Origin: Bdellovibrionales bacterium
GTDB taxonomy: Bacteria; Bdellovibrionota; Bdellovibrionia; Bdellovibrionales; UBA1609
NCBI GenBank assembly: GCA_965205645.1
Contig: OZ242172.1
Coordinates: forward strand, 120,863 to 184,862
Direction: 5' to 3'
DNA: 64,000 nt
In this document: positions 28,523 to 47,579 of the stretch, piece after piece
Numbering within the stretch: the first letter of the stretch is position 1
How the letters are laid out: each line of letters starts with the position of its first letter
Made by a program: the position numbers and the translations under genes
The notes under the pieces: model-generated
What the model was told of the DNA's origin: nothing
Seen by the model: the letters and a program-made list of their open reading frames with translations, nothing else
Database searches by the model: none

Positions 28523-28881
28523 TATTTCCTACTTTCTACATCTTAATTGGTGACCTGTTACTGAATGGATTCACCTACAGAAAAACAAATTGATGAAAAA
28601 TGAATATACTATAATAATTCAATTTTGACGCTATAAAATATCGTAAGAATGTATTTTTTACATATCTACATTTATTTAGCAAAAACCAATCCTTATCACC
28701 ATGGGTTTTTATTATCTGTCAGATAAAAAATTTAATGTTCCAAAATAAAACATTCTCTTAAAGGAACATTAGTAAAAGTCCGATAAAAAGTACTGAAAAC
28801 TGATAAAAACAAAAAAAACCATTTTGCTAGAAAGAACTAAGAAATTTAAAAAATAACAAGCGGGATTTAAAAAGTAAGGAA

Positions 28882-31852: not shown

Positions 31853-33499
31853 TTAAATCGTAATATTGGCAGCCACCGGAGAGATAATTTCCAAAAAGCC
31901 ATTAAACACATTCGTCACTTGAGCAAAAACCACCGGATCGGTTTTGCTGTTCATGCTGCTAACAGTACCTTTTTTATCATACGCGACCACTATCGTACCA
32001 ACACCCGGACGAATAATCCGACTGGGTTTGCCAAATTGCTTATGATATTTAACTAAAATTTTCTTCCGAGATTGATCGTACATTTCACTAATTCGACCAA
32101 CATGATCTCGTTTAACAATCACCCACCGACCTGTTTCTTTTTGTTGCACTTGAGTTAAATAGCATTTTGCCGAATGATAAGTAATTTTCGTATTGATCCG
32201 ACGTACCACTTTTTTTCCCTGAATATAATTCACTTGCACGACTTGCGGCTTCCGACATTTTTTATGATAACCCGTAATCGGAAAAAACATTTGACGATTT
32301 GGTTCCATCCGTGCAACCAACAAACCGGTTTTATCATCATAAGTGTATTTGGTAGTCACTCTATTACGTGTAACAGAAGTCGGAGAACCTGTTTTTGCGT
32401 CAAAAGTCATATCTTCTACCTGACCATTAACAGCTTGCCGTGCACGATATAAGTACTTACCTCCACCTTTTGGTTTATTGCGATTCCAAAATTCATAGCG
32501 GCTCATATTTGTCACTTGATTACCACAAATTTTCTTCACATCTGTCCAATAATGATCTTTGTTTCTTGGATTTGTGACATAAATATAAGACTCCCTACAA
32601 CCACGACGATCTTTAAAACCCGTTACCCAATCTTTATCTTCATTGTATACCAAAGATTCATAGGATTGATCCGAATAGCGAGTCTTTGTCATGTTGTGAT
32701 ACTCATCATATATATGCTGATACTGAGTTTTCTTTTTGCTACCGGCCGGCTTTCTAATCACCTGTTCCAAGTTATCCTTAACAATCATATAAGTAACCTT
32801 TTCACTCTGACCGGCAATACTAAACCCGGGAGTTTTTTTATGATTTTTCCGAAATTGCCAGCTAAGCCCTTTGTTCGTTAGCACCTTTTGAACAGTCGGT
32901 CCGCGACGAACTATTTTCATCCATCCACTCTTTGGATCAGACTCCATGACCAAATGACCTTGCTTACTAAACACTTGTTTTCTACCATCCAAGAAACTAC
33001 GTCTGTATTCACTCCCCGTAAATAACATCGTTTCACCAGAGCGACCAACCGCTTGGTATCTTTGCCCAGCACGTGCTTTCCCTCTTAAACCAAAAGCCCG
33101 CATTAACTCCGATTGCAAAGAAGAAGATTTTTCCAAATCCATCGCTAATTTATTAACATACTTTTTGGAAAGCCCTTTCTTCTTACGTACCCTGATCATA
33201 ATTTGTTGAATCATTTTCTGCCGATTAGGTCGGCCGTATGCAACCTCTAAGCCACCCCCACACTCTATTACTTTTAGAGAGTTATCCGGCAATACCTCCA
33301 CCCGAGTTTCCAGATTAGAACACCATCCGTAACCAAATAAACCTCGGTAAATAGAACGAGAATTATATGCACGTTCCAAAGTAAAACCGTCAGAAGAAAA
33401 ATCTACATATGTTTTAGTATAATTGCCGTTTTTAGTATCCACTAAAGCTAGTGCTGAAAAACTAACAAATAAACTATAAATAATTATTTGATTTTTCAT
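31853..33499 (-). CDS. secreted YD-repeat (Rhs-family-like) protein without toxin tip
   Basis: Signal peptide 'MKNQIIIYSLFVSFSALA'. 'DTKNGNYTKTYVDFSSDGFTLERAYNSRSIYRGLFGYGWCSNLE' fits the module preceding YD repeats in Rhs proteins. Degenerate YD repeats ('KYTYDDKTGLLVARMEPN', 'VVAYDKKGTV'). AAGGGAG RBS. It lies 27 nt after the tadB/C-like gene. Confidence 0.65.
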   Translation of the reverse strand: MKNQIIIYSLFVSFSALALVDTKNGNYTKTYVDFSSDGFTLERAYNSRSIYRGLFGYGWCSNLETRVEVLPDNSLKVIECGGGLEVAYGRPNRQKMIQQIMIRVRKKKGLSKKYVNKLAMDLEKSSSLQSELMRAFGLRGKARAGQRYQAVGRSGETMLFTGSEYRRSFLDGRKQVFSKQGHLVMESDPKSGWMKIVRRGPTVQKVLTNKGLSWQFRKNHKKTPGFSIAGQSEKVTYMIVKDNLEQVIRKPAGSKKKTQYQHIYDEYHNMTKTRYSDQSYESLVYNEDKDWVTGFKDRRGCRESYIYVTNPRNKDHYWTDVKKICGNQVTNMSRYEFWNRNKPKGGGKYLYRARQAVNGQVEDMTFDAKTGSPTSVTRNRVTTKYTYDDKTGLLVARMEPNRQMFFPITGYHKKCRKPQVVQVNYIQGKKVVRRINTKITYHSAKCYLTQVQQKETGRWVIVKRDHVGRISEMYDQSRKKILVKYHKQFGKPSRIIRPGVGTIVVAYDKKGTVSSMNSKTDPVVFAQVTNVFNGFLEIISPVAANITI

Positions 33500-33526: not shown

Positions 33527-34423
33527 TTAGACCCGTATTGTAACAATTTTTTTCATCATAAAACTACCTAAAAAAATCAAAAACAAAATTAAAGCTAAGG
33601 AAGCCCAGCCCAAAGGCTTGGTCAACATTAAAACAGCTGTTTTTTTATTGAAAAAAAACATCATGACCAAAATAACCGCTGGCATGATAGAAATAATCAT
33701 CGCTTGCATACTACCTTGAGCAGTTAATGCTTTAATTTTACTTTCTACTTTTTGTCGATCCCGCAAAGTGATCACAATGACTTCTAAAGTTTCTGCTAAA
33801 TTTCCACCGGTTTCTTTTAAAATGTTAATTGCGGTTACCAGCATTGTTAGATCCGGCCGACGAATACGAGTTTCCATTTGAGTTAAAGCTTCTTCCACGC
33901 TCATACCTAGTTGAATTTTATTTAGCACTAATTGAAACTCCTGTGATAAAGGCCCAGACATCCCTTTCACCACTCTCCCCATGGATTGCGTAATACTCAG
34001 CCCTACTTTGACCCCATTAACCATCATTGTTAGACCTTCCACCATATCTGTTACTACTTGATCGCTTCTACGTTCCCAAATCGTCCGCATCACCCGTTGC
34101 ACGCCAACCCAAGATAACAAAAACCCTATGCAAGCTAAGACCAGCCCCAACGGCAAATTTGGCCAAGCGAGTAAAAAAAATAAAAATGCCATACCTAAAC
34201 CTAAAATCCAAAGTTGCACTACTACTTTATCTGGTTGAGTCTTTAGCATCATTCTACTAACAATATCCAATACCTCTTTTTGAGAATTTAAAGTTTTTGC
34301 TTTAAAAAACTGAATCAAAGAAGGAAAACGTAAATAACAAACAATAAAAATAAAAATACCAGTAACAATAGATAAAACTAAAGGCTGCAATAAAATACTT
34401 TTAATAATATTCATGATAGACAA
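33527..34423 (-). CDS. Tad pilus platform protein (T2SS-F domain, TadB/TadC-like)
   Basis: 'GLSITQSMGRVVKGMSGPLSQEF', 'LTMLVTAINILKETGGNLAETLEVIVITLRDRQKVESKIKALTAQG', three TM regions. Confidence 0.8.
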   Translation of the reverse strand: MSIMNIIKSILLQPLVLSIVTGIFIFIVCYLRFPSLIQFFKAKTLNSQKEVLDIVSRMMLKTQPDKVVVQLWILGLGMAFLFFLLAWPNLPLGLVLACIGFLLSWVGVQRVMRTIWERRSDQVVTDMVEGLTMMVNGVKVGLSITQSMGRVVKGMSGPLSQEFQLVLNKIQLGMSVEEALTQMETRIRRPDLTMLVTAINILKETGGNLAETLEVIVITLRDRQKVESKIKALTAQGSMQAMIISIMPAVILVMMFFFNKKTAVLMLTKPLGWASLALILFLIFLGSFMMKKIVTIRV

Positions 34424-34429
34424 ACTCCC

Positions 34430-36706
34430 CTAAGATATCTTTTTAGTCGGTGATGGAGGTGAAAGAGGTTTTTTTGGTCGTGTACCCAAACCTGCCGGCA
34501 TGGAACGCAAGCGAGCAGACGGGGATTGAGCACCTTGACTGAGAAGTGAAGTTTTTTTTGCTGCACTTGCCGGTGGCGCACTAGTTGTAAATAAAGAACG
34601 TGGAATTTTAATTCCCTTTTGTTCAAATTTTTCAATAAACGAAGGGATCATTCCCATTGCTTGAAATTGTCCGATAATTTTTCTGTTTTTATCAAAACCT
34701 TCTTCTTTAAATCTAAAAATTTCCTGTAAAGTAATTGTATCTACTTGTAAACCTACCACCTCTGTTACACTTTTGATTTTACGACTACCATCATTTAAGC
34801 GACCAATCTGAATAATTAAATGGACAGCTCCTGCAATCTGTTCCCGAATCGCTTTAATAGGTAGATCCATTCCGGCCATTAAGCATAAAGTTTCCAAACG
34901 AGAAACCGCCTCCCGCGGAGTGTTTGCATGCACAGTTGTCATCGATCCTTCGTGCCCTGTATTCATCGCAGATAACATATCCAAAGCCGCTCCGTCCCGA
35001 CATTCTCCAACGACAATTCGATCCGGCCGCATTCTAAGGGAGTTACGAATTAAATCCCGAATCGTCACTTCCCCTTTCCCTTCAATATTGACCGGACGTG
35101 TTTCTAACCGAACCACATGTTCTTGATTCAGTTGTAATTCAGCCGCGTCTTCTACTGTAATAATACGTTCATTCACCGGAATAAATCCACTCAGTACATT
35201 AAGTAATGTCGTTTTACCGGAACCCGTTCCTCCGGAGATCACAACATTCAATCCTTGCTCGACACAAATTTTTAAAAAATCCGCCATCGCAGGCGTCATA
35301 GAACCAAAACGATTCACTAAATCTTCTATCTTCACTCTATCTTGTGGAAACTTCCGAATGGTCACAACCGGACCATCAATAGAAAGAGGCTCAATGACCG
35401 CATTCACCCTAGAGCCATCCTGTAACCTGGCATCTACATACGGACTTTTTTCATCAATCCGCCGACCCAGCGGAGTGACAATTCGTTCAATCACATTTCG
35501 TAGTTGACGATTAGAAGTAAAAGTAACTGAACTTAAATTCAGCCGACCAGACTTTTCACAAAAAATTTGATCGCAACCATTCACCATAATCTCCGTAACA
35601 GACGGATCGGATAATAGTTCTTCCAAAGGACCTAAACCTAAAGCTTCATCCAATACCTGCTTAATGACTTGAATGCGCTCTTGACGAGAAAGACCTTGCC
35701 CTCTTTTATCCACTAAACGTGACACCACTATTTGCGTTTTACCCTTTAATTCTTTTCTAGAATCTTCATCCTTAGCCTGTGTAATATCTTTTTTTAAATC
35801 CATTTCCTTAATAAGCTCTGTATGAATTTGCATTTTTAGAAGCGTTAAAGGATTTAAAGCTCTGGTTTTTTTTTGCACACCTCCGCCCGCTGTTTGACTA
35901 GCTGTCGATACAGTAATCGCCGGTTTCTTTTTAGGACGAACAAGAGATTTATTTCTTTGTAAGACACCGCCAGCTAGTCTTCGCACCATATTATGATAGT
36001 TTTGTGCTAGTAAACTGTCCGGACGAAATAGTACAAACGGTTGAGAGGTTTGCAAAGCTTGATGGCAGATGGCATCATCCTTCGGTAACACCGCAATCAC
36101 TGGAAGACGTAAACTACTGGCAATAGCCTGCGAGGAAAGTCCCCCTGTCGCTGCATGATTGATCACCAACTGAAAAAGCTGAGAAGGCAAAGTAGCTGCA
36201 CTTAATTCATTTAAAATTCTTTTCGTTTGATTAACGACCAATATTTCAGGAGTTAGTGCCACTAAAATTACACTTGCCATATCCAACACGGAAAATTGTA
36301 AAGAATTGAGACTACAGCCCGCGTCTACTACGATATATGTAAAAAGCTGTGAAAGACCAAATAATTGTTTACTAAATATTATTGGATCACCAGCTAAGCT
36401 TTGCTCTGGACCTGTGACAGCTCCTATGTAAGCGAGTCCACTTTTATGAAATGCAACTAACTGACGTACATTTTGTTCCGTAATCACTCCCGAAAATCGC
36501 GTAAGATCCAACACTGTTTTCACAGGTCTTTGCCCAAGAATAACACTTTGATCACCACAGCTTTTCTCATCCAAATCTACTAAAGCAACGGAAGCCCGCA
36601 TTTCTTTTTGAATAGCTAAAGCTAAGTTAGCCGCCAAGACGCTTTTACCCACCCCTCCTTTGCCGCCAACGACAGCTATCACATGACATTTAGGATTTAA
36701 AAGCAC
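34430..36706 (-). CDS. tadA: fusion of a TadZ/CpaE-like ParA/MinD ATPase with the TadA/CpaF secretion ATPase, plus a Ser/Pro/Lys-rich tail
   Basis: aa 1-250 carry 'VIAVVGGKGGVGKS' (deviant Walker A). aa ~330-700 are CpaF-like: 'PLEELLSDPSVTEIMVNG', Walker A 'GGTGSGKTT', 'ERIITVEDAAELQL', 'HEGSMTTVHAN'. The last ~55 aa are 'APPASAAKKTSLLSQGAQSPSARLRS...SPPSPTKKIS'. Confidence 0.85.
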   Translation of the reverse strand: MLLNPKCHVIAVVGGKGGVGKSVLAANLALAIQKEMRASVALVDLDEKSCGDQSVILGQRPVKTVLDLTRFSGVITEQNVRQLVAFHKSGLAYIGAVTGPEQSLAGDPIIFSKQLFGLSQLFTYIVVDAGCSLNSLQFSVLDMASVILVALTPEILVVNQTKRILNELSAATLPSQLFQLVINHAATGGLSSQAIASSLRLPVIAVLPKDDAICHQALQTSQPFVLFRPDSLLAQNYHNMVRRLAGGVLQRNKSLVRPKKKPAITVSTASQTAGGGVQKKTRALNPLTLLKMQIHTELIKEMDLKKDITQAKDEDSRKELKGKTQIVVSRLVDKRGQGLSRQERIQVIKQVLDEALGLGPLEELLSDPSVTEIMVNGCDQIFCEKSGRLNLSSVTFTSNRQLRNVIERIVTPLGRRIDEKSPYVDARLQDGSRVNAVIEPLSIDGPVVTIRKFPQDRVKIEDLVNRFGSMTPAMADFLKICVEQGLNVVISGGTGSGKTTLLNVLSGFIPVNERIITVEDAAELQLNQEHVVRLETRPVNIEGKGEVTIRDLIRNSLRMRPDRIVVGECRDGAALDMLSAMNTGHEGSMTTVHANTPREAVSRLETLCLMAGMDLPIKAIREQIAGAVHLIIQIGRLNDGSRKIKSVTEVVGLQVDTITLQEIFRFKEEGFDKNRKIIGQFQAMGMIPSFIEKFEQKGIKIPRSLFTTSAPPASAAKKTSLLSQGAQSPSARLRSMPAGLGTRPKKPLSPPSPTKKIS

Positions 36707-36712
36707 TATGTA

Positions 36713-38227
36713 TCACCGCCTAGAGAGTTTAAACTTTCTTTTAATCTGCTCTACACCGCTAGACGCAGAGTCTTTAATATTCGGAGTCACAAAAACCACA
36801 AACTGGCTTTGTGATCGATTAAATTTTTTAGAAGATAAAAAAGACACTAATGGATTAGCTCCTTGCTGTGCGGGCTCACGATTATAATCCGAGAAAAACT
36901 TATTACTAACAATGCCACCAATTACAGCGCTTAAACCGGATTGCACATGAACTGTTGTCTGTACGCGCCGACTAGTTGTAATCGGTGCTTGTCCCGTTGT
37001 ACCCACTACATTGACAACTTCAAAACCAATCCTCATTTGTACGCTACTTCTACGCGGTCCAATAATATTCGGTTTAATTTTGATATTTAACCCTACTGTT
37101 GTTTGCTCAATTTTTTGTCCACCATTCGGACCTGCTGTCGCTAAAAATGGAATACTTTTTTGAGATCCAATATCAGCGGATACACCATCTTCCGTCACCA
37201 CATTTGCAGAATGCAAAATACGAGCAAAACCAAAAGCTTTCGCCCAATTTAATTTAGGCAAAAAATTATTAATTGTGCCGGAAATAATTCCAGCCACCGT
37301 GCCAAGACCACCCGATCCCGAATGAAAAGTAAATTTCGTGCCATCATTAATCTGAGGCATCCATTGAAAACGAAAATTATCCGAATAATCTTTATTGAGT
37401 TCCACATAATGCACAACCAGCTGAATAAGTTTTTGTCTTCCATCTGGTTTTGGTTCTCGTACTTGAATATGATTAATCACTGCCGGACGATTTCTCTCCC
37501 TAACCGGCCCGCCAGAACCAGTCGCTGCATGAGAAATTTCATCTGGTACATATAATTCAGCAATTGCTTGTGCTTTTTTTTTCTCGCCATCATCGCTAAC
37601 AAAACCTTCTAAAATAAAAGTAGTATTAATTACTCGTACAGTAACATTGCGATTATTAATTTCCTTTTCAATGAATTTCGCCATTTTACTTTGCGCGAGC
37701 GGGCTAAGTGTGACAAAAGAATTCGCAGTACCTCCATAAGCTACAATCACATCATGAATGCGCTTCATATCTCGCGGCACTAAAATTTCACCGTCCACTG
37801 TCACTCGGTTATTAACGATTTTAATCGTAATACCATCCACTTCTTTTAAAAGACCTTGGATTTCATTAGCAATATCCCGCAAGTTAGTCTTGCGCACAGT
37901 CAGCAACAATTTTTTAACAATCCGAGACTGCGAATCTTTAATATTTAAAGTGCCTACCCCTGTGCGCCTGGGAATGAAGCGAATAACTCCTGTTAGCGCA
38001 TTATGATTCAAACTGGTAAACTTACGATAAGTTCCTTCAAACTTTAATTTTTTACCTTTTAAAGATTTGGATAGAAAATGATCATACTGAACACCTTTGT
38101 AAAGATACAAAGATTCCGGTGTCACCTTCTTAGCTGCAAAAGCGCCCAAACATACAAAGCATAAAATAATAACAGACTGTACAGCATAGAGTGAATAACG
38201 AGTGAGCAGCACCCATCCAACTTTCAT
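36713..38227 (-). CDS. Tad secretin (RcpA/CpaC)
   Basis: Secretin C-domain ('GLNIKIKPNIIG', 'SGLSAVIGGIVSN', 'PLVSFLSSKKF...QFVVFVTPNI'). Start preferred at ATG 38227 after GGAGAAGGA. The ORF track begins at TTG 38242. Confidence 0.85.
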   Translation of the reverse strand: MKVGWVLLTRYSLYAVQSVIILCFVCLGAFAAKKVTPESLYLYKGVQYDHFLSKSLKGKKLKFEGTYRKFTSLNHNALTGVIRFIPRRTGVGTLNIKDSQSRIVKKLLLTVRKTNLRDIANEIQGLLKEVDGITIKIVNNRVTVDGEILVPRDMKRIHDVIVAYGGTANSFVTLSPLAQSKMAKFIEKEINNRNVTVRVINTTFILEGFVSDDGEKKKAQAIAELYVPDEISHAATGSGGPVRERNRPAVINHIQVREPKPDGRQKLIQLVVHYVELNKDYSDNFRFQWMPQINDGTKFTFHSGSGGLGTVAGIISGTINNFLPKLNWAKAFGFARILHSANVVTEDGVSADIGSQKSIPFLATAGPNGGQKIEQTTVGLNIKIKPNIIGPRRSSVQMRIGFEVVNVVGTTGQAPITTSRRVQTTVHVQSGLSAVIGGIVSNKFFSDYNREPAQQGANPLVSFLSSKKFNRSQSQFVVFVTPNIKDSASSGVEQIKRKFKLSRR

Positions 38228-38260
38228 ATTTCCTTCTCCCAAATAAACTAACTATTTTTA

Positions 38261-39091
38261 CTACCTATTTCTTCTTCTAATCGTCGGCAGACCACCTTTT
38301 GTGCGCGCAGGTCTCCTAGCTGTATTGTTTAACACCTGCTCAATGCCGGAAGTTAATACATTAGTTTCATGTTCATGATCACTAGGATGTCTTAAAGATA
38401 AGAACAAAGAACCTGGCGAAGTGGACAGCACATACACTAAATTTTGAATTGCTTTTTTATCTGCTTCAATTGTAATAGAATTAAAATTAGTCGCTGAACG
38501 TAAATTACGAATAAAATTATCTCCGCTAATTTCTTCCAATACACGCGGCAATTCACTAACCACTTTTATTCCTGTCGCTAAAATAACCACATCTTGCATA
38601 ATAGTTCGGACAACGCGTTTTTGGTTGGTCCCTTCCCGAATATCTAAAGCGGCAATGACGTCTATTCTATCTCCAGGTTTTAACAACTTGGCGACTCCTC
38701 GCATTTCATCAATCGGTATCGTTAATGCGCGCCGACCGGGAGCCACTTGCAATGAAAGCCCAGTAGTAGGTCCGGGTTTTGTGATTTTAGTTTGCAAAAT
38801 TTGTTCGCCGGTAGAAATAGGAGCTAGAGCAACAAGCCCCACTGCTTCTTCTACAGAAGACAGAGCAGCAGGCTGCACAAAACTGCTTGGAAATTCTTTT
38901 AACTGTACCATTGTATCATTGATAGTTTCCATCTCCCCAATATCTCTAACCGCTACCAAGACAGAAGTCTGGGCACCAAACCGACGAGAGATTTGCGCAC
39001 TTTTCTCTTGTGTATAACTGTAGATCAGCATCACCGCAAAAATAGCTGCGCCAATACTCATCCATAAAGTAAGCGTTTCGTTTTTATTCAT
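38261..39091 (-). CDS. cpaB: Flp pilus assembly protein CpaB/RcpC
   Basis: N-terminal TM, SAF-like 'VLVAVRDIGEMETIN', and 'RALTIPIDEMRGVAKLLKPGDRIDVIA' typical of CpaB. Confidence 0.8.
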   Translation of the reverse strand: MNKNETLTLWMSIGAAIFAVMLIYSYTQEKSAQISRRFGAQTSVLVAVRDIGEMETINDTMVQLKEFPSSFVQPAALSSVEEAVGLVALAPISTGEQILQTKITKPGPTTGLSLQVAPGRRALTIPIDEMRGVAKLLKPGDRIDVIAALDIREGTNQKRVVRTIMQDVVILATGIKVVSELPRVLEEISGDNFIRNLRSATNFNSITIEADKKAIQNLVYVLSTSPGSLFLSLRHPSDHEHETNVLTSGIEQVLNNTARRPARTKGGLPTIRRRNR

Positions 39092-40671: not shown

Positions 40672-41217
40672 TTAAGTATACATAGTGGCTGTCAACCACC
40701 CTATCAACAAGCTGACAGAAAAAGGAAAAGCAGTTAACTTATCGGAAATAGGCCGTTTAAACTGAACCAGTAGCCAAAGATTGAGTAACACCATCCGAAT
40801 TTTTTTATCTAAACAAGATTTCACCAACCCTAAAACACCTCCCCAAACAACAGCAAAAACGAGAGAAAAAAATAAAAGACGCGGCGAACTCACAAAACCT
40901 AAAACAACATATAATTTCATATCCCCACCCCCAATGACTTTCATTAAGACTAAAGGCGCAGTTAACCCCAAGGCTAAAACACTTTTGCCAAGCACAGGAA
41001 GCACACCTTCCATTAATAGCTGAGATAAAAAAGCAAAAACTAAAAGCTGATTTTTCTGCCGAATCTCTTCAAGATTCCAGTTTATTTGAAAACAAAAAAC
41101 AAAAATTAAGGCTAAAGCCGCTAAAATTAAAATCAGCCGATTATGAATTTTTCTAGATCGTAAATCATCCAATACTCCCACCAGTAAAATACAAGCAGGG
41201 AAAATAACATCCATCAT
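40672..41217 (-). CDS. prepilin peptidase, A24 family (CpaA/TadV)
   Basis: Two Asp motifs, 'VLDDLRSRKIHN' and 'GGGDMKL'. Polytopic membrane protein. Confidence 0.8.
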   Translation of the reverse strand: MMDVIFPACILLVGVLDDLRSRKIHNRLILILAALALIFVFCFQINWNLEEIRQKNQLLVFAFLSQLLMEGVLPVLGKSVLALGLTAPLVLMKVIGGGDMKLYVVLGFVSSPRLLFFSLVFAVVWGGVLGLVKSCLDKKIRMVLLNLWLLVQFKRPISDKLTAFPFSVSLLIGWLTATMYT

Positions 41218-41317: not shown

Positions 41318-41542
41318 TTAAAAGAATAAACTTCTATCCGGAGGCGAGTATAGCGGTTTTTTCCACTGTACTTTGGAGCTTTCCCAAAAACCTCCTCCAC
41401 AAGCGACATGTTTTTCTATACGTGCTGACAAATAAGGAAGAGATTTTTGAAATGTCTGTGTAAGTCCCCATTTGGGATGTACAAATACACCCATCACCAA
41501 AAACACATAAAAAGACAAAAGTAGCACTAATTCAGCTGTCAT
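41318..41542 (-). CDS. hypothetical small membrane protein in the tad operon
   Basis: 74-aa ORF starting 10 nt after the flp stop. 'MTAELVLLLSFYVFLVMGVFV' is a single TM. No leader is possible because there is a TAG two codons upstream. Confidence 0.35.
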   Translation of the reverse strand: MTAELVLLLSFYVFLVMGVFVHPKWGLTQTFQKSLPYLSARIEKHVACGGGFWESSKVQWKKPLYSPPDRSLFF

Positions 41543-41735: not shown

Positions 41736-41837
41736 TTACCCCTCCTTAAGTACTTCGTTCGGCTAGCAGAAGAAAAAACTTTATTTTTCTCGTTTTGAAA
41801 CAAAATAATCTAACCTGGGTAACCGATAAAGTGCTTA

Positions 41838-42878
41838 ATGAATATTTTAAAAAAAATATCCTGCGACTTTGGTAGGTGTATTCCGATCAGCGACACGGAT
41901 AATATTGTTCAGCAAACAAAATGTAGCAAATGTGTCCCCCCTCTTCATCAGAATCATAGGAGCGACAACCATTCTATCGCAGGACAGGCGATTGTAGAGT
42001 ATGTACTTATTTTAACCGTATTAGTTTTTGTCGGAGGAGGACTTTTATTTACCTTCAATAAAGGAGTACAAGCTTGGGGAAAAGCTTTACTAGGAACAGA
42101 TGGATATTTTGCCTGCTTGTTACAAACCGGTTTATTACCTATGCAAAATAGGCCAGGAGCAGAATGCGGAAGTCCGGCAGATTCCGCGAAAGCTTTTAAA
42201 GATATGGACTTAACGCTCCCTTCTTCTGGAGGTGGTGGTGGTAGTAACCCTAGCTCGCCATCAGGTAGCACAAATAACTCTAGTTCTAATAAATTATCAA
42301 ATAACAAATCTGATTCATCTTCCTCAACAAATGAAAATGAAAATGGAAATACCTATCCAACTAGTAACCGGAGAACGGCATCCAAACCTACTAGATCTGC
42401 CGGCAAAAATAGCAGTACCTATCAACCCTCTGGACAGCTAATAACTAACAATAAACTAAACAACTTAGATGATATGGCATCTAATACTACATACACTAAA
42501 CGCAATCGTAGAAAAAAAAACAGAAGATTAACAGTTAAAAAAAATAAGCCAGGGTTTAAAGGTTATGAATCGGAAAATAAAAACAAACGATACACACAAG
42601 TCTATTCCGGTGGCTTCTTAACAGAAAAAGAAGAACAAGAACAAAGATCGCGCGCAATCGCTGTCGCTAGCTTAGGAAAAAAAAACAACCTAACCAGCCA
42701 CAAGAAAAAACCTATGCGACTGGTAAAAAAACTAAAAACTAAAACACAAAAAGATCTAGAAATTGGAGATTGGTCTTTTGGTAATATATTCCGATTTGTC
42801 TTAATTATTGGTATTCTGTGCATTATTGCTTTCTTGATCGCTAACCAAACTAACTCTGTTAGAAAAGCTCTCAAATAG
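41838..42878 (+). CDS. Flp-motif protein with long Cys-containing leader, Ser/Asn/Lys-rich low-complexity body and C-terminal TM (P3)
   Basis: 'SIAG|QAIVEYVLILTVLVFVGGG' at aa 46-70. Also 'SSGGGGGS', 'KPGFKGY', a poly-K/R region, and 'GNIFRFVLIIGILCIIAFLIA' at the C-terminus. Divergent from flp. Confidence 0.5.
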   Translation: MNILKKISCDFGRCIPISDTDNIVQQTKCSKCVPPLHQNHRSDNHSIAGQAIVEYVLILTVLVFVGGGLLFTFNKGVQAWGKALLGTDGYFACLLQTGLLPMQNRPGAECGSPADSAKAFKDMDLTLPSSGGGGGSNPSSPSGSTNNSSSNKLSNNKSDSSSSTNENENGNTYPTSNRRTASKPTRSAGKNSSTYQPSGQLITNNKLNNLDDMASNTTYTKRNRRKKNRRLTVKKNKPGFKGYESENKNKRYTQVYSGGFLTEKEEQEQRSRAIAVASLGKKNNLTSHKKKPMRLVKKLKTKTQKDLEIGDWSFGNIFRFVLIIGILCIIAFLIANQTNSVRKALK

Positions 42879-42932: not shown

Positions 42933-43556
42933 TTAAAACTGAGGATTTATTTCTAAGTAGGTAAATATTTCACAATTATAATTGGCTCTTACATAGAATT
43001 TCTTTGTATTTTTTTGATATTGATCGCAGCCTAAGTAGTTTTTCGTACTAAAATGAACGACTTTACTATACATAAAAACAGGAACTTCAAAAAAACTAGT
43101 AGTTCCAGTATCAGAATCAAAGCACTGCATTGTAGAAAATATAAATGGTATGCAAGAACCAGATTTATATAACAAATTTGTAATATCCACTAGATCGCCT
43201 AACTCGTTAAAATACTTATGATTTCCATAGCTAAGAAGTGGTATTATATATTTTTTACCCTGATCCATGGTCATGCTTACCGGCGAATGATAAGAGATAC
43301 TATCTGGAGAAAATATTTCCGAGTCAGTAGTATAACCATACTGAATAGCATCACAAGCTAAACTACCCCCTTGAGATTTCTTATATTGATTGACTTGTAA
43401 TATATGAGAATCCCTTGTTTTAGAGTTGATACAGATAAGAGCTGATCTCCTAAATGGTAAGGGAGCGTTAGTTGTTAATTCTTCATATTGACTGTAAGCG
43501 AAAATGGGCACTAATATAAAACCGAAGGTGTAAAAAAATAAAATCCAGTTTTTCAT
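42933..43556 (-). CDS. hypothetical secreted protein
   Basis: Start taken at ATG 43556, giving 'MKNWILFFYTFGFILVPIFAYS'. No recognisable domain. Confidence 0.45.
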   Translation of the reverse strand: MKNWILFFYTFGFILVPIFAYSQYEELTTNAPLPFRRSALICINSKTRDSHILQVNQYKKSQGGSLACDAIQYGYTTDSEIFSPDSISYHSPVSMTMDQGKKYIIPLLSYGNHKYFNELGDLVDITNLLYKSGSCIPFIFSTMQCFDSDTGTTSFFEVPVFMYSKVVHFSTKNYLGCDQYQKNTKKFYVRANYNCEIFTYLEINPQF

Positions 43557-43715
43557 AGTTTTTTCAAAATAAAATTTCTGATAATTATTGTCAATAATAC
43601 ACTGCATAATTTTTCGGAACCGATTCAAGTTTCGAAAGAACAAAGTTTTTTGATACTTTCAAATTACCAAGTGTTATTTGACAGAGTTTTTAAATAAGCG
43701 ATATAAAAAACTCCA

Positions 43716-45970: not shown

Positions 45971-46815
45971 CTGTTCTCCGTTGCTTTAGTTTTAAAAAGT
46001 CTAGCTGTTTGTTCACCCTCACCTAAACGACCTAAATCCTCTCCATTTTGAAAAATTTGAACTAAATTAGATTTATCTGTTTGAATTAATAAAGAATTTT
46101 TTGCCTTCAACACTTCAAAATGATCTTTCTTCAAATAAATATTCTGAGTCTCCCCTCCATCGGACTGATAAAACACCTGAACTACCCCTAACGCTTTTAC
46201 TACGATTTCTAAACCATTAGTTGACAGCGTAGGTACAACAACAGGTTTTTTCTCTACTAAACGAGGAGCCGGCTCAACACTACTTGGAACCTCTGGTGAA
46301 ACAGATAATTGTTTTCCTTCTTCTTTTGAAGACGGATGAACAGTCGTTGGCATAACGGATTTAGTATTTGTATTTTTTATAAAAGATTTTGGTGTATCAC
46401 AAGAACGAATCATATTGAAAAACACCAACACTCCACCGAGCACAAGCAAAATAATACTAGCGACTATTACTGGCATTAAATGTAACTCTGTTTCAACCAT
46501 ATTTTCCAAGTCAGATACACCACTAGCTGGTTTAACCGCTGGCACTTCCTGCTGAGGAAGCAACATTTGAACTTCCTTTAATAAACTTTGCTCTTTTAAA
46601 CCAACAATACGTGCATAGCTTAAAATAAATCCACGTAAATACACATATACTGGCAAGTTTTCCATCTGCCCTTCTTCAATGGCCTTTAAAACAGTCGAGC
46701 TAATACAAGTTTTTTGAGATATCTCTTTTAAAGATAGATTTAAAGCTTTTCGTTTATCTTTTAAAGCCTGTCCAATATGTAATAACTGCTGCTGAATCTT
46801 TATTTTTGGTTCCAT
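45967..46815 (-). CDS. rodZ: cytoskeleton protein RodZ-like (HTH, single TM)
   Basis: 'LSLKEISQKTCISSTVLKAIEEG', 'YLRGFILSYARIVGL', central TM 'MPVIVASIILLVLGGVLVFF'. ndk-TPR-rodZ synteny. Confidence 0.75.
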   Translation of the reverse strand: MEPKIKIQQQLLHIGQALKDKRKALNLSLKEISQKTCISSTVLKAIEEGQMENLPVYVYLRGFILSYARIVGLKEQSLLKEVQMLLPQQEVPAVKPASGVSDLENMVETELHLMPVIVASIILLVLGGVLVFFNMIRSCDTPKSFIKNTNTKSVMPTTVHPSSKEEGKQLSVSPEVPSSVEPAPRLVEKKPVVVPTLSTNGLEIVVKALGVVQVFYQSDGGETQNIYLKKDHFEVLKAKNSLLIQTDKSNLVQIFQNGEDLGRLGEGEQTARLFKTKATENR

Positions 46816-47579
46816 TTTCTCATCCAGTTCAAAGCTTGCGATCGATAATCACTTTCTAAATCTTTAGATAAAAAAATCTGTAGATCTTGTTTGGCTTTCT
46901 TCAATTGTCCCGTTTTATAATGGATCAAAGCAGAAAAATAATATGATTCAAAAGTAGGAGGAGTACAAGTAGGAGGAGCATTTTGACACCAGGTTTTAGC
47001 TGACTTAAAAATTGACATAGCAGCTGTAAAACGATTTAAAAAATATAAACTCTTTCCATGATATAAAGCAATCGCACAATTTTGTGGTTGGATTTTACGA
47101 GATACACTAAAATATCTTTGTGCCGGATGAAATTGCTTTTTTTTATAATAAGCAAAACCTAGATGCGCATGAATATTCTCCGGATTCGCGTATGTTAGAT
47201 CTTCCTTAGCTATTTTTAAATGTCGAATAGCTGATGAAATATTATTAGTTTCTATTAAACTGCGCGCTAGATCTATTCGTGCTGGCGTAAAATTCGGTTT
47301 TAATTTAAGTGCTTTCTGTAAAAACTTTGTCGCTTTATCATATTTTTTAAACTGAAAATACACAAGACCTAAACTGTGATACAAATCAGGATCCAAGGGA
47401 TTAAATTTGACCGCTTGATTTAACTCCTTTAGTGCTTCTGCAAACTGACATTTGTGTATCAAAGAAATTGCCAAATTATGATACGTTCGACTTTTAGCAG
47501 TTTTTTGATTGGATACGCACGACAAAGCTAAGCATAAACAAATAAAACCAGCTATTTTACTAAAGATGGCACGGTTCAT
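46800..47579 (-). CDS. TPR lipoprotein (PilW/PilF-like by position)
   Basis: Lipobox 'CLALSC' and TPR repeats. It occupies the slot between ndk and rodZ that holds pilF/pilW in gammaproteobacterial ndk-rlmN-pilF-rodZ clusters. Confidence 0.5.
   Translation of the reverse strand: MNRAIFSKIAGFICLCLALSCVSNQKTAKSRTYHNLAISLIHKCQFAEALKELNQAVKFNPLDPDLYHSLGLVYFQFKKYDKATKFLQKALKLKPNFTPARIDLARSLIETNNISSAIRHLKIAKEDLTYANPENIHAHLGFAYYKKKQFHPAQRYFSVSRKIQPQNCAIALYHGKSLYFLNRFTAAMSIFKSAKTWCQNAPPTCTPPTFESYYFSALIHYKTGQLKKAKQDLQIFLSKDLESDYRSQALNWMRKWNQK

Follow-up and report, generated by a model that had tools for sequence, protein, structure and literature searches.

The tad locus in a 64,000-nucleotide (nt) stretch of contig OZ242172.1 from a Bdellovibrionales bacterium (the window) raises the question of what is encoded on the far side of its flp gene. 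Divergently from flp, across an intergenic gap of 102 bp, lies a gene (41838..42878 on the plus strand, stop codon included) which a first-pass annotation of the DNA had described as encoding a 346-amino-acid (aa) protein with an Flp prepilin motif, a low-complexity body, and a C-terminal transmembrane (TM) helix. This open reading frame (ORF) is genuine, opens with ATG, and is divergent from flp as described. Is its product a pilin, and does it work in the pilus? We find that the 346-aa gene is one member of a large, unnamed, Bdellovibrio-like family rather than a lone oddity. We tentatively read its product as a minor pilin that would be processed by the prepilin peptidase, stay tethered to the inner membrane, and work in the Tad machine, a reading to which we assign a probability of about 40%.

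An unnamed family with an Flp-like N terminus

A word-based search returned nine homologues of the 346-aa protein with 33 to 82% identity, and an exhaustive profile search enlarged the family to 759 clusters (at 50% identity) with E <= 1e-3, 581 of them with E <= 1e-10. All recoverable loci and names belong to metagenome-assembled genomes (MAGs) labeled "Bdellovibrionales" or "Bdellovibrio sp.," a sponge metagenome is the source of one close relative, and every protein is called "hypothetical." When the family alignment and a member of 51% GC content were used in word-based searches, only MAG proteins came back and no cultured or named homologue was found; B. bacteriovorus bd3297 (flp3) was one such candidate. 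The 346-aa protein itself had zero matches at E <= 1 in Pfam and NCBIfam, and searching the PDB by sequence turned up nothing but low-complexity matches (CCDC6 and SRP68 among them). Pfam searches with 74 members yielded matches to the class III signal (Class_IIIsignal) and to Flp1_like, the latter at E <= 0.01 for 5 of the 74, while the rest was low-complexity noise (RIFIN, Vac7, ATG27).

The predicted processing site and the hydrophobic stretch behind it (SIAG↓QAIVEYVLILTVLVFVGGG, where the arrow marks the predicted cleavage) span residues 46 to 68; the motif had thus been seen correctly in the first pass, although its end was placed at residue 70. With G49↓QAIVEY followed by VLILTVLVFVGGGLLF, the protein has the glycine at -1, glutamate at +5, tyrosine at +6, and about 20 hydrophobic residues that define Flp membership, and its helix is almost the same as in the cognate Flp ("EYVLIL"). 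Compared by hhalign, the family N terminus scored 97.7% (E 2e-12) against the neighboring Flp and 96.7% (E 3.9e-10, over 59 columns) against an 80-aa minor pilin of the tad locus. A hidden Markov model (HMM) of the family, run with filters off against all 501 ORFs of the window, matched only the protein itself, Flp (3.3e-8), and the 80-aa minor pilin (2.2e-7). The same three were the only window ORFs with the pattern G-x4-E-[YFM] followed by a hydrophobic stretch, and they have the cleavage context G↓Q in common. Since the pilin motif is invariant in the family, it is no chance match. The region past the helix, tested alone by hhalign, gave E 0.28 and is without similarity to Flp or the 80-aa minor pilin. 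To judge from these profile comparisons, the N terminus of the 346-aa protein is homologous to Flp and carries a genuine class III (Flp-type prepilin) signal.

Across 74 diverse members, four residues are invariant (G49 at -1, E54 at +5, C93, and C110) and nine are nearly so (Q50, Y55, L57, Y90, L94, L100, P101, I323, and Q337). An alignment of 154 sequences contains two conserved modules, "GQA.VEYIL.L ... Y.ACLLETGELPG ... C" (with a CLLxTGxLP core) and "SFG..R..LI..II....GGQ..Q..KS," and the region between them is poorly conserved. In the family, this middle region measures 191 to 339 aa, consists to 48% of S/G/N/T/P/Q, and has a net charge anywhere from -20 to +33; the number of cysteines between the anchors is exactly two in 149 of 152 members. 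The G-x4-E motif and the C-terminal TM helix occur together in 146 of 156 fetched proteins, and a relaxed definition ([GA]-x4-[ED], then a hydrophobic stretch, plus the C-terminal TM helix) covers 152 of 160.

Predicted architecture and topology

Cleavage after G49, as predicted, would leave a mature protein of 297 aa with a second, conserved TM helix near its C terminus (residues ~315 to 335; Kyte-Doolittle 2.98). The two short motifs singled out earlier, SSGGGGGS at residues 129 to 136 and KPGFKGY at 237 to 243, are both present, as is the low-complexity body between the helices. AlphaFold2 (AF2), given an alignment of 74 sequences, predicted confident helices at residues 50 to 85, 90 to 97, 113 to 124, and 314 to 345, with predicted local distance difference test (pLDDT) scores of 80 to 91 (80 to 84 for the first helix), and no structure for residues 129 to 256; an alignment of 10 sequences gave a poor model (pLDDT 47).

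In relatives, the linker harbors repeats. The homologue at locus L005 (9104-10339) has a five-fold "SSSGASPTP" tandem repeat, and the one at L004 (9947-10936) has a run of more than 30 Ser, which shows that the linker region evolves rapidly through its repeats. The Pro/Thr/Ser repeat in the L005 homologue is of an extracytoplasmic type.

With respect to topology, K and R are richer in the leader than in the stretch after the first TM helix (TM1) in 129 of 154 members, and the family net charge is -1.1 in the 15 residues before the C-terminal helix (TM2) and +0.8 in the C-terminal tail. This charge pattern fits an N-in, loop-out, C-in arrangement, in which the invariant C93 and C110 would fit a predicted periplasmic disulfide.

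It is conceivable that the C-terminal helix and its basic tail form a cleavable sorting signal, whose removal would free a large Flp-type minor pilin to act on the pilus as an adhesin for the prey envelope. The SFG motif, the hydrophobic helix, and the short basic tail resemble C-terminal sorting domains, such signals are often preceded by Ser/Gly/Thr-rich linkers, and a basic region could bind anionic prey surfaces. However, the basic character of the linker is not conserved, the tail is long (11 aa) and conserved in sequence (Q..Q..KS), the locus holds no sortase-like gene, and no CTERM model of NCBIfam (PEP-CTERM, GlyGly-CTERM, and MYXO-CTERM are such families) matched at E <= 1. Moreover, real tags are common to many unrelated proteins, whereas this C-terminal domain was seen only with the family N terminus (146 of 156). 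We regard a sorting signal as very improbable.

Start codon, leader, and candidate promoter

Between the upstream stop codon and G49, the 346-aa gene has a single in-frame ATG/GTG/TTG, so that the first pass was right in finding no start nearer to the motif. The resulting leader of 49 aa contains the two cysteine pairs reported there, at positions 9/14 (C-x4-C) and 29/32 (C-x2-C). As another possible start, we weighed an ATC codon that follows an internal AGGAG near the Flp motif but rejected it because of the spacing (13 nt), because ATC starts are very rare, and because the arrangement of a sigma-28 box and the ATG is conserved.

No Shine-Dalgarno sequence was seen upstream of the ATG; a -10 box of the sigma-28 (FliA) type lies there (Table 1), exact in sequence and accompanied by a weak -35 element. 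In B. bacteriovorus, the FliA promoters behind most attack-phase genes have CCGATA as their -10 element, TTAAG-N16-CCGATA being present in 92 of 140 promoters (PMC3627812), and the TAD operon of Bdellovibrio is FliA dependent (PMC5430801). The sigma-28 pattern tested here was TTAAG/TAAA-N15-16-(G)CCGATA(A). At 13 of 39 family loci, NCCGATAA stands 6 to 10 nt 5' of the in-frame start, and it stands 25 to 53 nt 5' of the start at 5 more of the 39, loci without a nearby flp included; from its 7 matches in 128 kb (the window, both strands), about 0.01 such placements are expected. A sigma-70-like site was not found upstream on the plus strand, and a sigma-70/terminator scan was without useful result. 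Together, these observations suggest a leaderless or near-leaderless attack-phase sigma-28 transcript, which would speak for the ATG at 41838 as the real start and thereby for the long leader; we word this cautiously because the -35 element is weak.

The intergenic region between the two divergent genes has further features. flp, in the window and in relatives, has TAAAGTTT-N11/12-NCCGAT(A/T)A upstream, and between the two promoters a block, TTTTCTCGTTTTGAAACAAAATAAT (41784-41810, plus strand), is nearly invariant in the window, L039, and L040, with diverged leader-coding DNA flanking it; this block may be a shared regulatory site. At L007 (9132-11362), where the family gene lies between atpB and atpE, GCCGATAA is still found 8 nt before the in-frame ATG.

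The leader itself had been likened to a zinc ribbon on the strength of its four cysteines, a likeness that dissolves on comparison. The 82%-identical orthologue P0002 has Tyr in place of one Cys, and the pattern is kept in no other aligned homologue; leaders are otherwise Cys-free, with a median length of 17 aa in the family, and that of a 67%-identical orthologue differs in both frame and sequence. A long leader with cysteines is peculiar to the nearest relatives and no trait of the family.

Genomic context of the family

At 20 of 33 informative loci, flp lies divergently within 2.3 kb upstream of the family gene. At L008, the family gene keeps its tad/flp neighborhood despite a non-syntenic other flank. 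At loci whose tad cluster is located elsewhere, nadE and a TPR gene remain beside the family gene (e.g., L009 and L013), and other contexts are the site between atpB and atpE in L007 and a position after nuo in L011.

These other contexts could mean that the prepilin-type signal is a mere targeting or anchoring device for a disordered, often basic envelope protein of the periplasm that has no part in a pilus mechanism, a use of the signal comparable to that in archaeal sugar-binding proteins. Such a protein would account for a region after TM1 that is unrelated to Flp or the minor pilin, and the sigma-28 box marks a broad attack-phase regulon of Bdellovibrio that extends beyond pilus genes (PMC3627812). 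On the other hand, the invariant Glu+5, the Tyr+6, and the Flp-like helix exceed what an anchor needs, the family profile picks just two pilins among the ORFs of the window, and the adjacency to flp, in one case with a non-syntenic other flank, would be left over. We consider a plain anchor decidedly unlikely.

A tethered minor pilin as the preferred reading

Under the reading that we prefer, the 346-aa gene would be transcribed from the attack-phase sigma-28 promoter as a leaderless mRNA, and its product would insert into the inner membrane like a prepilin, with the basic leader in the cytoplasm and the alpha1N helix spanning the membrane. The Tad prepilin peptidase would then cut after Gly49. 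The mature protein would consist of the pilin helix with its Glu at +5, a periplasmic head with a Cys93-Cys110 disulfide, a disordered periplasmic linker (190 to 340 residues in the family), and a C-terminal helix leading back into the inner membrane, with some 11 residues in the cytoplasm. While this last helix remains in the membrane, the pilin module would dock with Flp and the minor pilins at the Tad assembly site or in the filament, so that the tethered protein would prime, anchor, or limit the pilus. A linker of 235 residues would have a contour length of ~80 nm, enough to reach the secretin. Glu+5 of type IV pilins is required for assembly and not for cleavage. Its invariance here, together with the near identity of the helix to that of Flp and a linker that is never shorter than ~190 aa, leads us to favor a module that would contact pilins in the manner of a pilin and be able to leave its anchor.

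Several observations weigh against a tethered pilin. We know of no precedent for a pilin that retains a membrane anchor, and extracting a tethered pilin into a filament may be impossible. In the window protein, the 96 residues before TM2 have a net charge of +20, which by the positive-inside rule favors the cytoplasm, although this charge is not conserved in the family (range, -20 to +33). The AF2 model from 74 sequences, a single chain, reached an overall pLDDT of only 60 and a predicted template modeling score of 0.29, and Foldseek found no structural neighbor of this better model in the PDB at E < 3. As for the genomic context, nadE lies 3' of the family gene at 24 of 28 loci, a linkage at least as tight as that of flp, and at 13 family loci tad genes are absent from the available flank (~1.2 to 6 kb). 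Because of these two observations, the adjacency to flp may reflect inherited synteny; we take it as supportive but not decisive, and the case for a functional tie to Tad is built chiefly on the pilin motif and the promoter.

Alternatively, the protein may be a pilin mimic that never enters the filament. As a regulator or scaffold of the inner membrane, it would use its Flp-like helix to bind the platform (TadB/C), the peptidase, or Flp that awaits assembly, while the C-terminal helix and linker would hold it in place or touch periplasmic parts (RcpC or the secretin). Such a protein would tune the time and place of pilus formation, for instance, as a reporter of pilin levels or tension. The same sequence evidence that speaks for a tethered pilin speaks for such a mimic, and a permanent second anchor is more in keeping with residence in the membrane than with a place in the filament. 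The weakly conserved short motifs of the linker could be docking sites, and regulators typically have such a divergent position, here beside flp. Signaling by membrane pilins is known elsewhere, from PilA to PilS in Pseudomonas and from PilA to PleC in Caulobacter. Yet the cytoplasmic part, which would be only ~11 residues long, has no obvious output domain, the invariant Glu+5 and the Flp-identical "EYVLIL" point to a filament-type contact, and a protein that stays in one membrane has no need of a linker of at least 191 aa. On balance, we hold a mimic to be somewhat unlikely, yet the weightiest of the rival readings.

The tethered-pilin reading can also be sharpened. The Flp-like module might be part of the start or base of the predatory Tad pilus, with the C-terminal helix left in the inner membrane and the ~80-nm linker serving as a ruler, an anchor, or a tension sensor that would limit the reach of the pilus or report its pull on prey. 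To our knowledge, no type IV filament has a subunit covalently tethered in such a way, and we rate this specific version as unlikely.

Comparison with known prepilin-type proteins

The closest described relatives are the Flp pilins (PF04964 Flp_Fap and PF16982 Flp1_like), with which the 346-aa protein shares the basic leader up to the Gly, Q-x-x-x-E-Y with the hydrophobic helix, a gene position beside TadV and the tad machine, and a putative sigma-28 promoter. It does not reach the thresholds of either Pfam model, and whereas Flp is a single helix that can leave the membrane (mature, ~43 aa; typical Flp, ~40 to 90 aa), the 297-aa mature form has a Cys-Cys head and a second TM helix, with a long disordered linker between them. 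Accessory pilins of the TadE/TadF type are of low abundance and are thought to prime assembly. These pseudopilins (PF07811), like the 80-aa minor pilin, share the class III signal G↓Q-x3-E, but the periplasmic domain of TadE/TadF is folded and a C-terminal anchor is missing from them, and the 346-aa protein, with a body predicted to be disordered, gave no PF07811 match at E <= 1.

A pilin module with a large C-terminal extension and an association with Tad is also found in the large minor pilins TadG/CpaL/KilN, which are proposed to endow the pilus with additional properties (PMC12075869; bioRxiv 10.1101/2025.02.12.637803). Their extension is a folded vWA or beta-rich domain, in contrast to the disordered extension of the 346-aa protein that ends in a membrane helix; TadG-type proteins are released into the tip, and neither this protein nor the 74 members had Pfam matches to the TadG/CpaL markers (PF13400 and vWA). 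Bd0118/Flp2 and flp3/flp4 are likewise atypical Flp-related genes of predators, some of them outside the tad locus, but have been described as small pilins (PMC5430801). Finally, archaeal proteins with a class III signal, such as the sugar-binding proteins of Sulfolobus, resemble the 346-aa protein in being far larger than a pilin and cell associated, yet they have folded substrate-binding domains and no Flp motif with Glu+5. In the literature searched, a pilin anchored to the membrane at its C terminus was nowhere described. With neither a Pfam or NCBIfam model nor any name other than "hypothetical," the first-pass impression that this architecture has not been described has stood.

P1, P2, and the surrounding locus

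The first pass had also linked the C-terminal part of the 346-aa protein to the tails of two further proteins, P1 and P2 (28882-31747, plus strand). This link was lost in every statistical test. BLASTP gave E > 2.6, Smith-Waterman scores were close to those of shuffled sequences (z = 1.2 and 0.8; 64 and 97 of 500 shuffles reached the score), and the family HMM missed both proteins even at E <= 10 with filters off. The resemblance is compositional only. P1 and P2 are paralogues that share a Cys-rich domain (BLASTP E 6e-28), their basic tails are homologous to each other only (z 9.4), and neither has a Pfam or NCBIfam match. About 95 nt 5' of P1 (28882), TAAAGGAA-N12-TCCGATAA occurs at 28759-28786 (plus strand), the sole full match to TAAA-N14-17-CCGATAA in the window, where 0.34 are expected by chance. 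P1 and P2 may thus be coregulated with flp via sigma-28, although they are not homologous to the 346-aa protein, and this sigma-28-like promoter is the only possible, and weak, link between them and the 346-aa gene.

Taken as a whole, the earlier interpretation was that of an oversized Flp pilin with a functional zinc-ribbon-like leader and a P1/P2-related tail that would tie P1 and P2 to the pilus. The four cysteines and the listed short motifs are indeed in the sequence, and the promoter of P1 makes coregulation possible. With cysteines lost in the closest orthologues, a leader that changes frame and sequence at 67% protein identity and has a median length of 17 aa, and a tail similarity no better than shuffles and absent from BLASTP and the profile search, we find this interpretation scarcely credible.

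flp heads a complete minus-strand tad locus, followed in order by the genes for an Flp2-like protein, TadV, minor pilins, RcpC, RcpA, TadZ-TadA, and TadB (Table 1).

Table 1. Features of the 346-aa gene, the intergenic region, and the tad locus in the window
Feature	Coordinates	Strand	Remarks
Leader peptide, residues 1-49	41838..41984	+	Ends in invariant G49; predicted prepilin-peptidase cleavage after G49; four Cys not conserved
Pilin-type alpha1N helix (TM1), residues 50-73 (QAIVEYVLILTVLVFVGGGLLFTF)	41985..42056	+	Invariant E54 (+5), Y55; hhalign, family HMM, AF2
Family-specific small helical head, residues 74-127 (GYFACLLQTGLLP)	42057..42218	+	Invariant Cys93 and Cys110, predicted periplasmic disulfide
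Disordered linker, residues 128-311	42219..42770	+	First part S/N/G-rich, second K/R-rich (net +20); AF2 pLDDT < 50
C-terminal anchor (TM2), residues 312-335 (WSFGNIFRFVLIIGILCIIAFLIA)	42771..42842	+	Conserved; 155/156 members; AF2 pLDDT 81-88
Tail, residues 336-346 (NQTNSVRKALK)	42843..42875	+	Short, conserved, predicted cytoplasmic; Q337 nearly invariant
Sigma-28 (FliA)-type -10 box ACCGATAA	41822..41829	+	Ends 8 nt before ATG 41838; conserved in L039
Sigma-28 promoter of flp, TAAAGTTT-N12-GCCGAACG	41756..41783	-	Conserved 5' of flp in L001-L003, L005, L006
flp, major Flp pilin, 60 aa	41553..41735	-	PF16982 E 1.7e-10; cleavage context G↓QGTAEYVLIL
Trimmed Flp2-like gene, 74 aa, right after flp	41318..41542	-	Starts MTAELVLLLSF, without leader or Gly; conserved in most loci
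TadV-type prepilin peptidase (A24)	40672..41217	-	PF01478 E 9.1e-10; presumed processing enzyme
Three minor-pilin-like genes, 80, 208, and 195 aa	39159..40598	-	80-aa protein carries G↓QITVEM
RcpC, RcpA secretin, TadZ-TadA fusion, TadB	33527..39091	-	Pfam matches

Several features of the locus deserve mention in their own right. A trimmed form of Flp (Flp2/Bd0118) has been reported only in Bdellovibrio, which lacks TadV (PMC5430801); the Flp2-like gene next to flp fits this description, yet it coexists here with a TadV gene. Inside the latter, a CCGATAA box (40739-40745, minus strand) lies ~140 nt 5' of the minor-pilin genes and may be an internal sigma-28 promoter, although the count of this 7-mer in the window is at chance level. 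TadZ (ParA/MinD-like) and TadA (T2SSE) are fused into one protein of 758 aa (34430-36706, minus strand), which is conserved in related loci, and a recent study reports this atypical fusion from B. bacteriovorus as well (bioRxiv 10.64898/2026.07.08.737194). The far end of the tad locus is occupied by the gene for an RHS-associated DUF6531 protein of 548 aa (31853-33499, minus strand); a DUF6531 protein is found at the same position in the distant L008.

On the other side of the 346-aa gene, a conserved nadE-rnt-HTH_25-TPR block includes a TPR protein with a lipoprotein-type signal (46800-47579, minus strand) that resembles the secretin pilotins Tgl/PilW below curated cutoffs; as TadD-like pilotins, the TPR neighbors gave only generic TPR matches, also below cutoffs. 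A 236-aa ORF between the 346-aa gene and nadE (42933-43643, minus strand) is without a family match and looks like a lineage-specific insertion, since the related loci carry no gene at this position. The region yielded no match in Rfam or tRNA scans.

Implications for the predatory Tad pilus

Tad pili are essential for contact killing by Myxococcus. They are also essential for prey attachment and invasion by Bdellovibrio (PMC5430801; bioRxiv 10.64898/2026.07.08.737194). The family described here probably serves this pilus, which the predators need for prey attack. Judged by sequence, its combination of an Flp-like start, a long floppy linker, and a second membrane anchor appears not to have been described for pilins before. 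The start of a Tad pilus, its anchoring, the limit of its length, and its coupling to signaling are roles for one of which the family is a concrete candidate, a candidacy that rests on its conservation, its predicted attack-phase-like regulation, and the union of an Flp processing and assembly motif with a second anchor. The family also widens the range of bacterial proteins that bear a prepilin-type signal.

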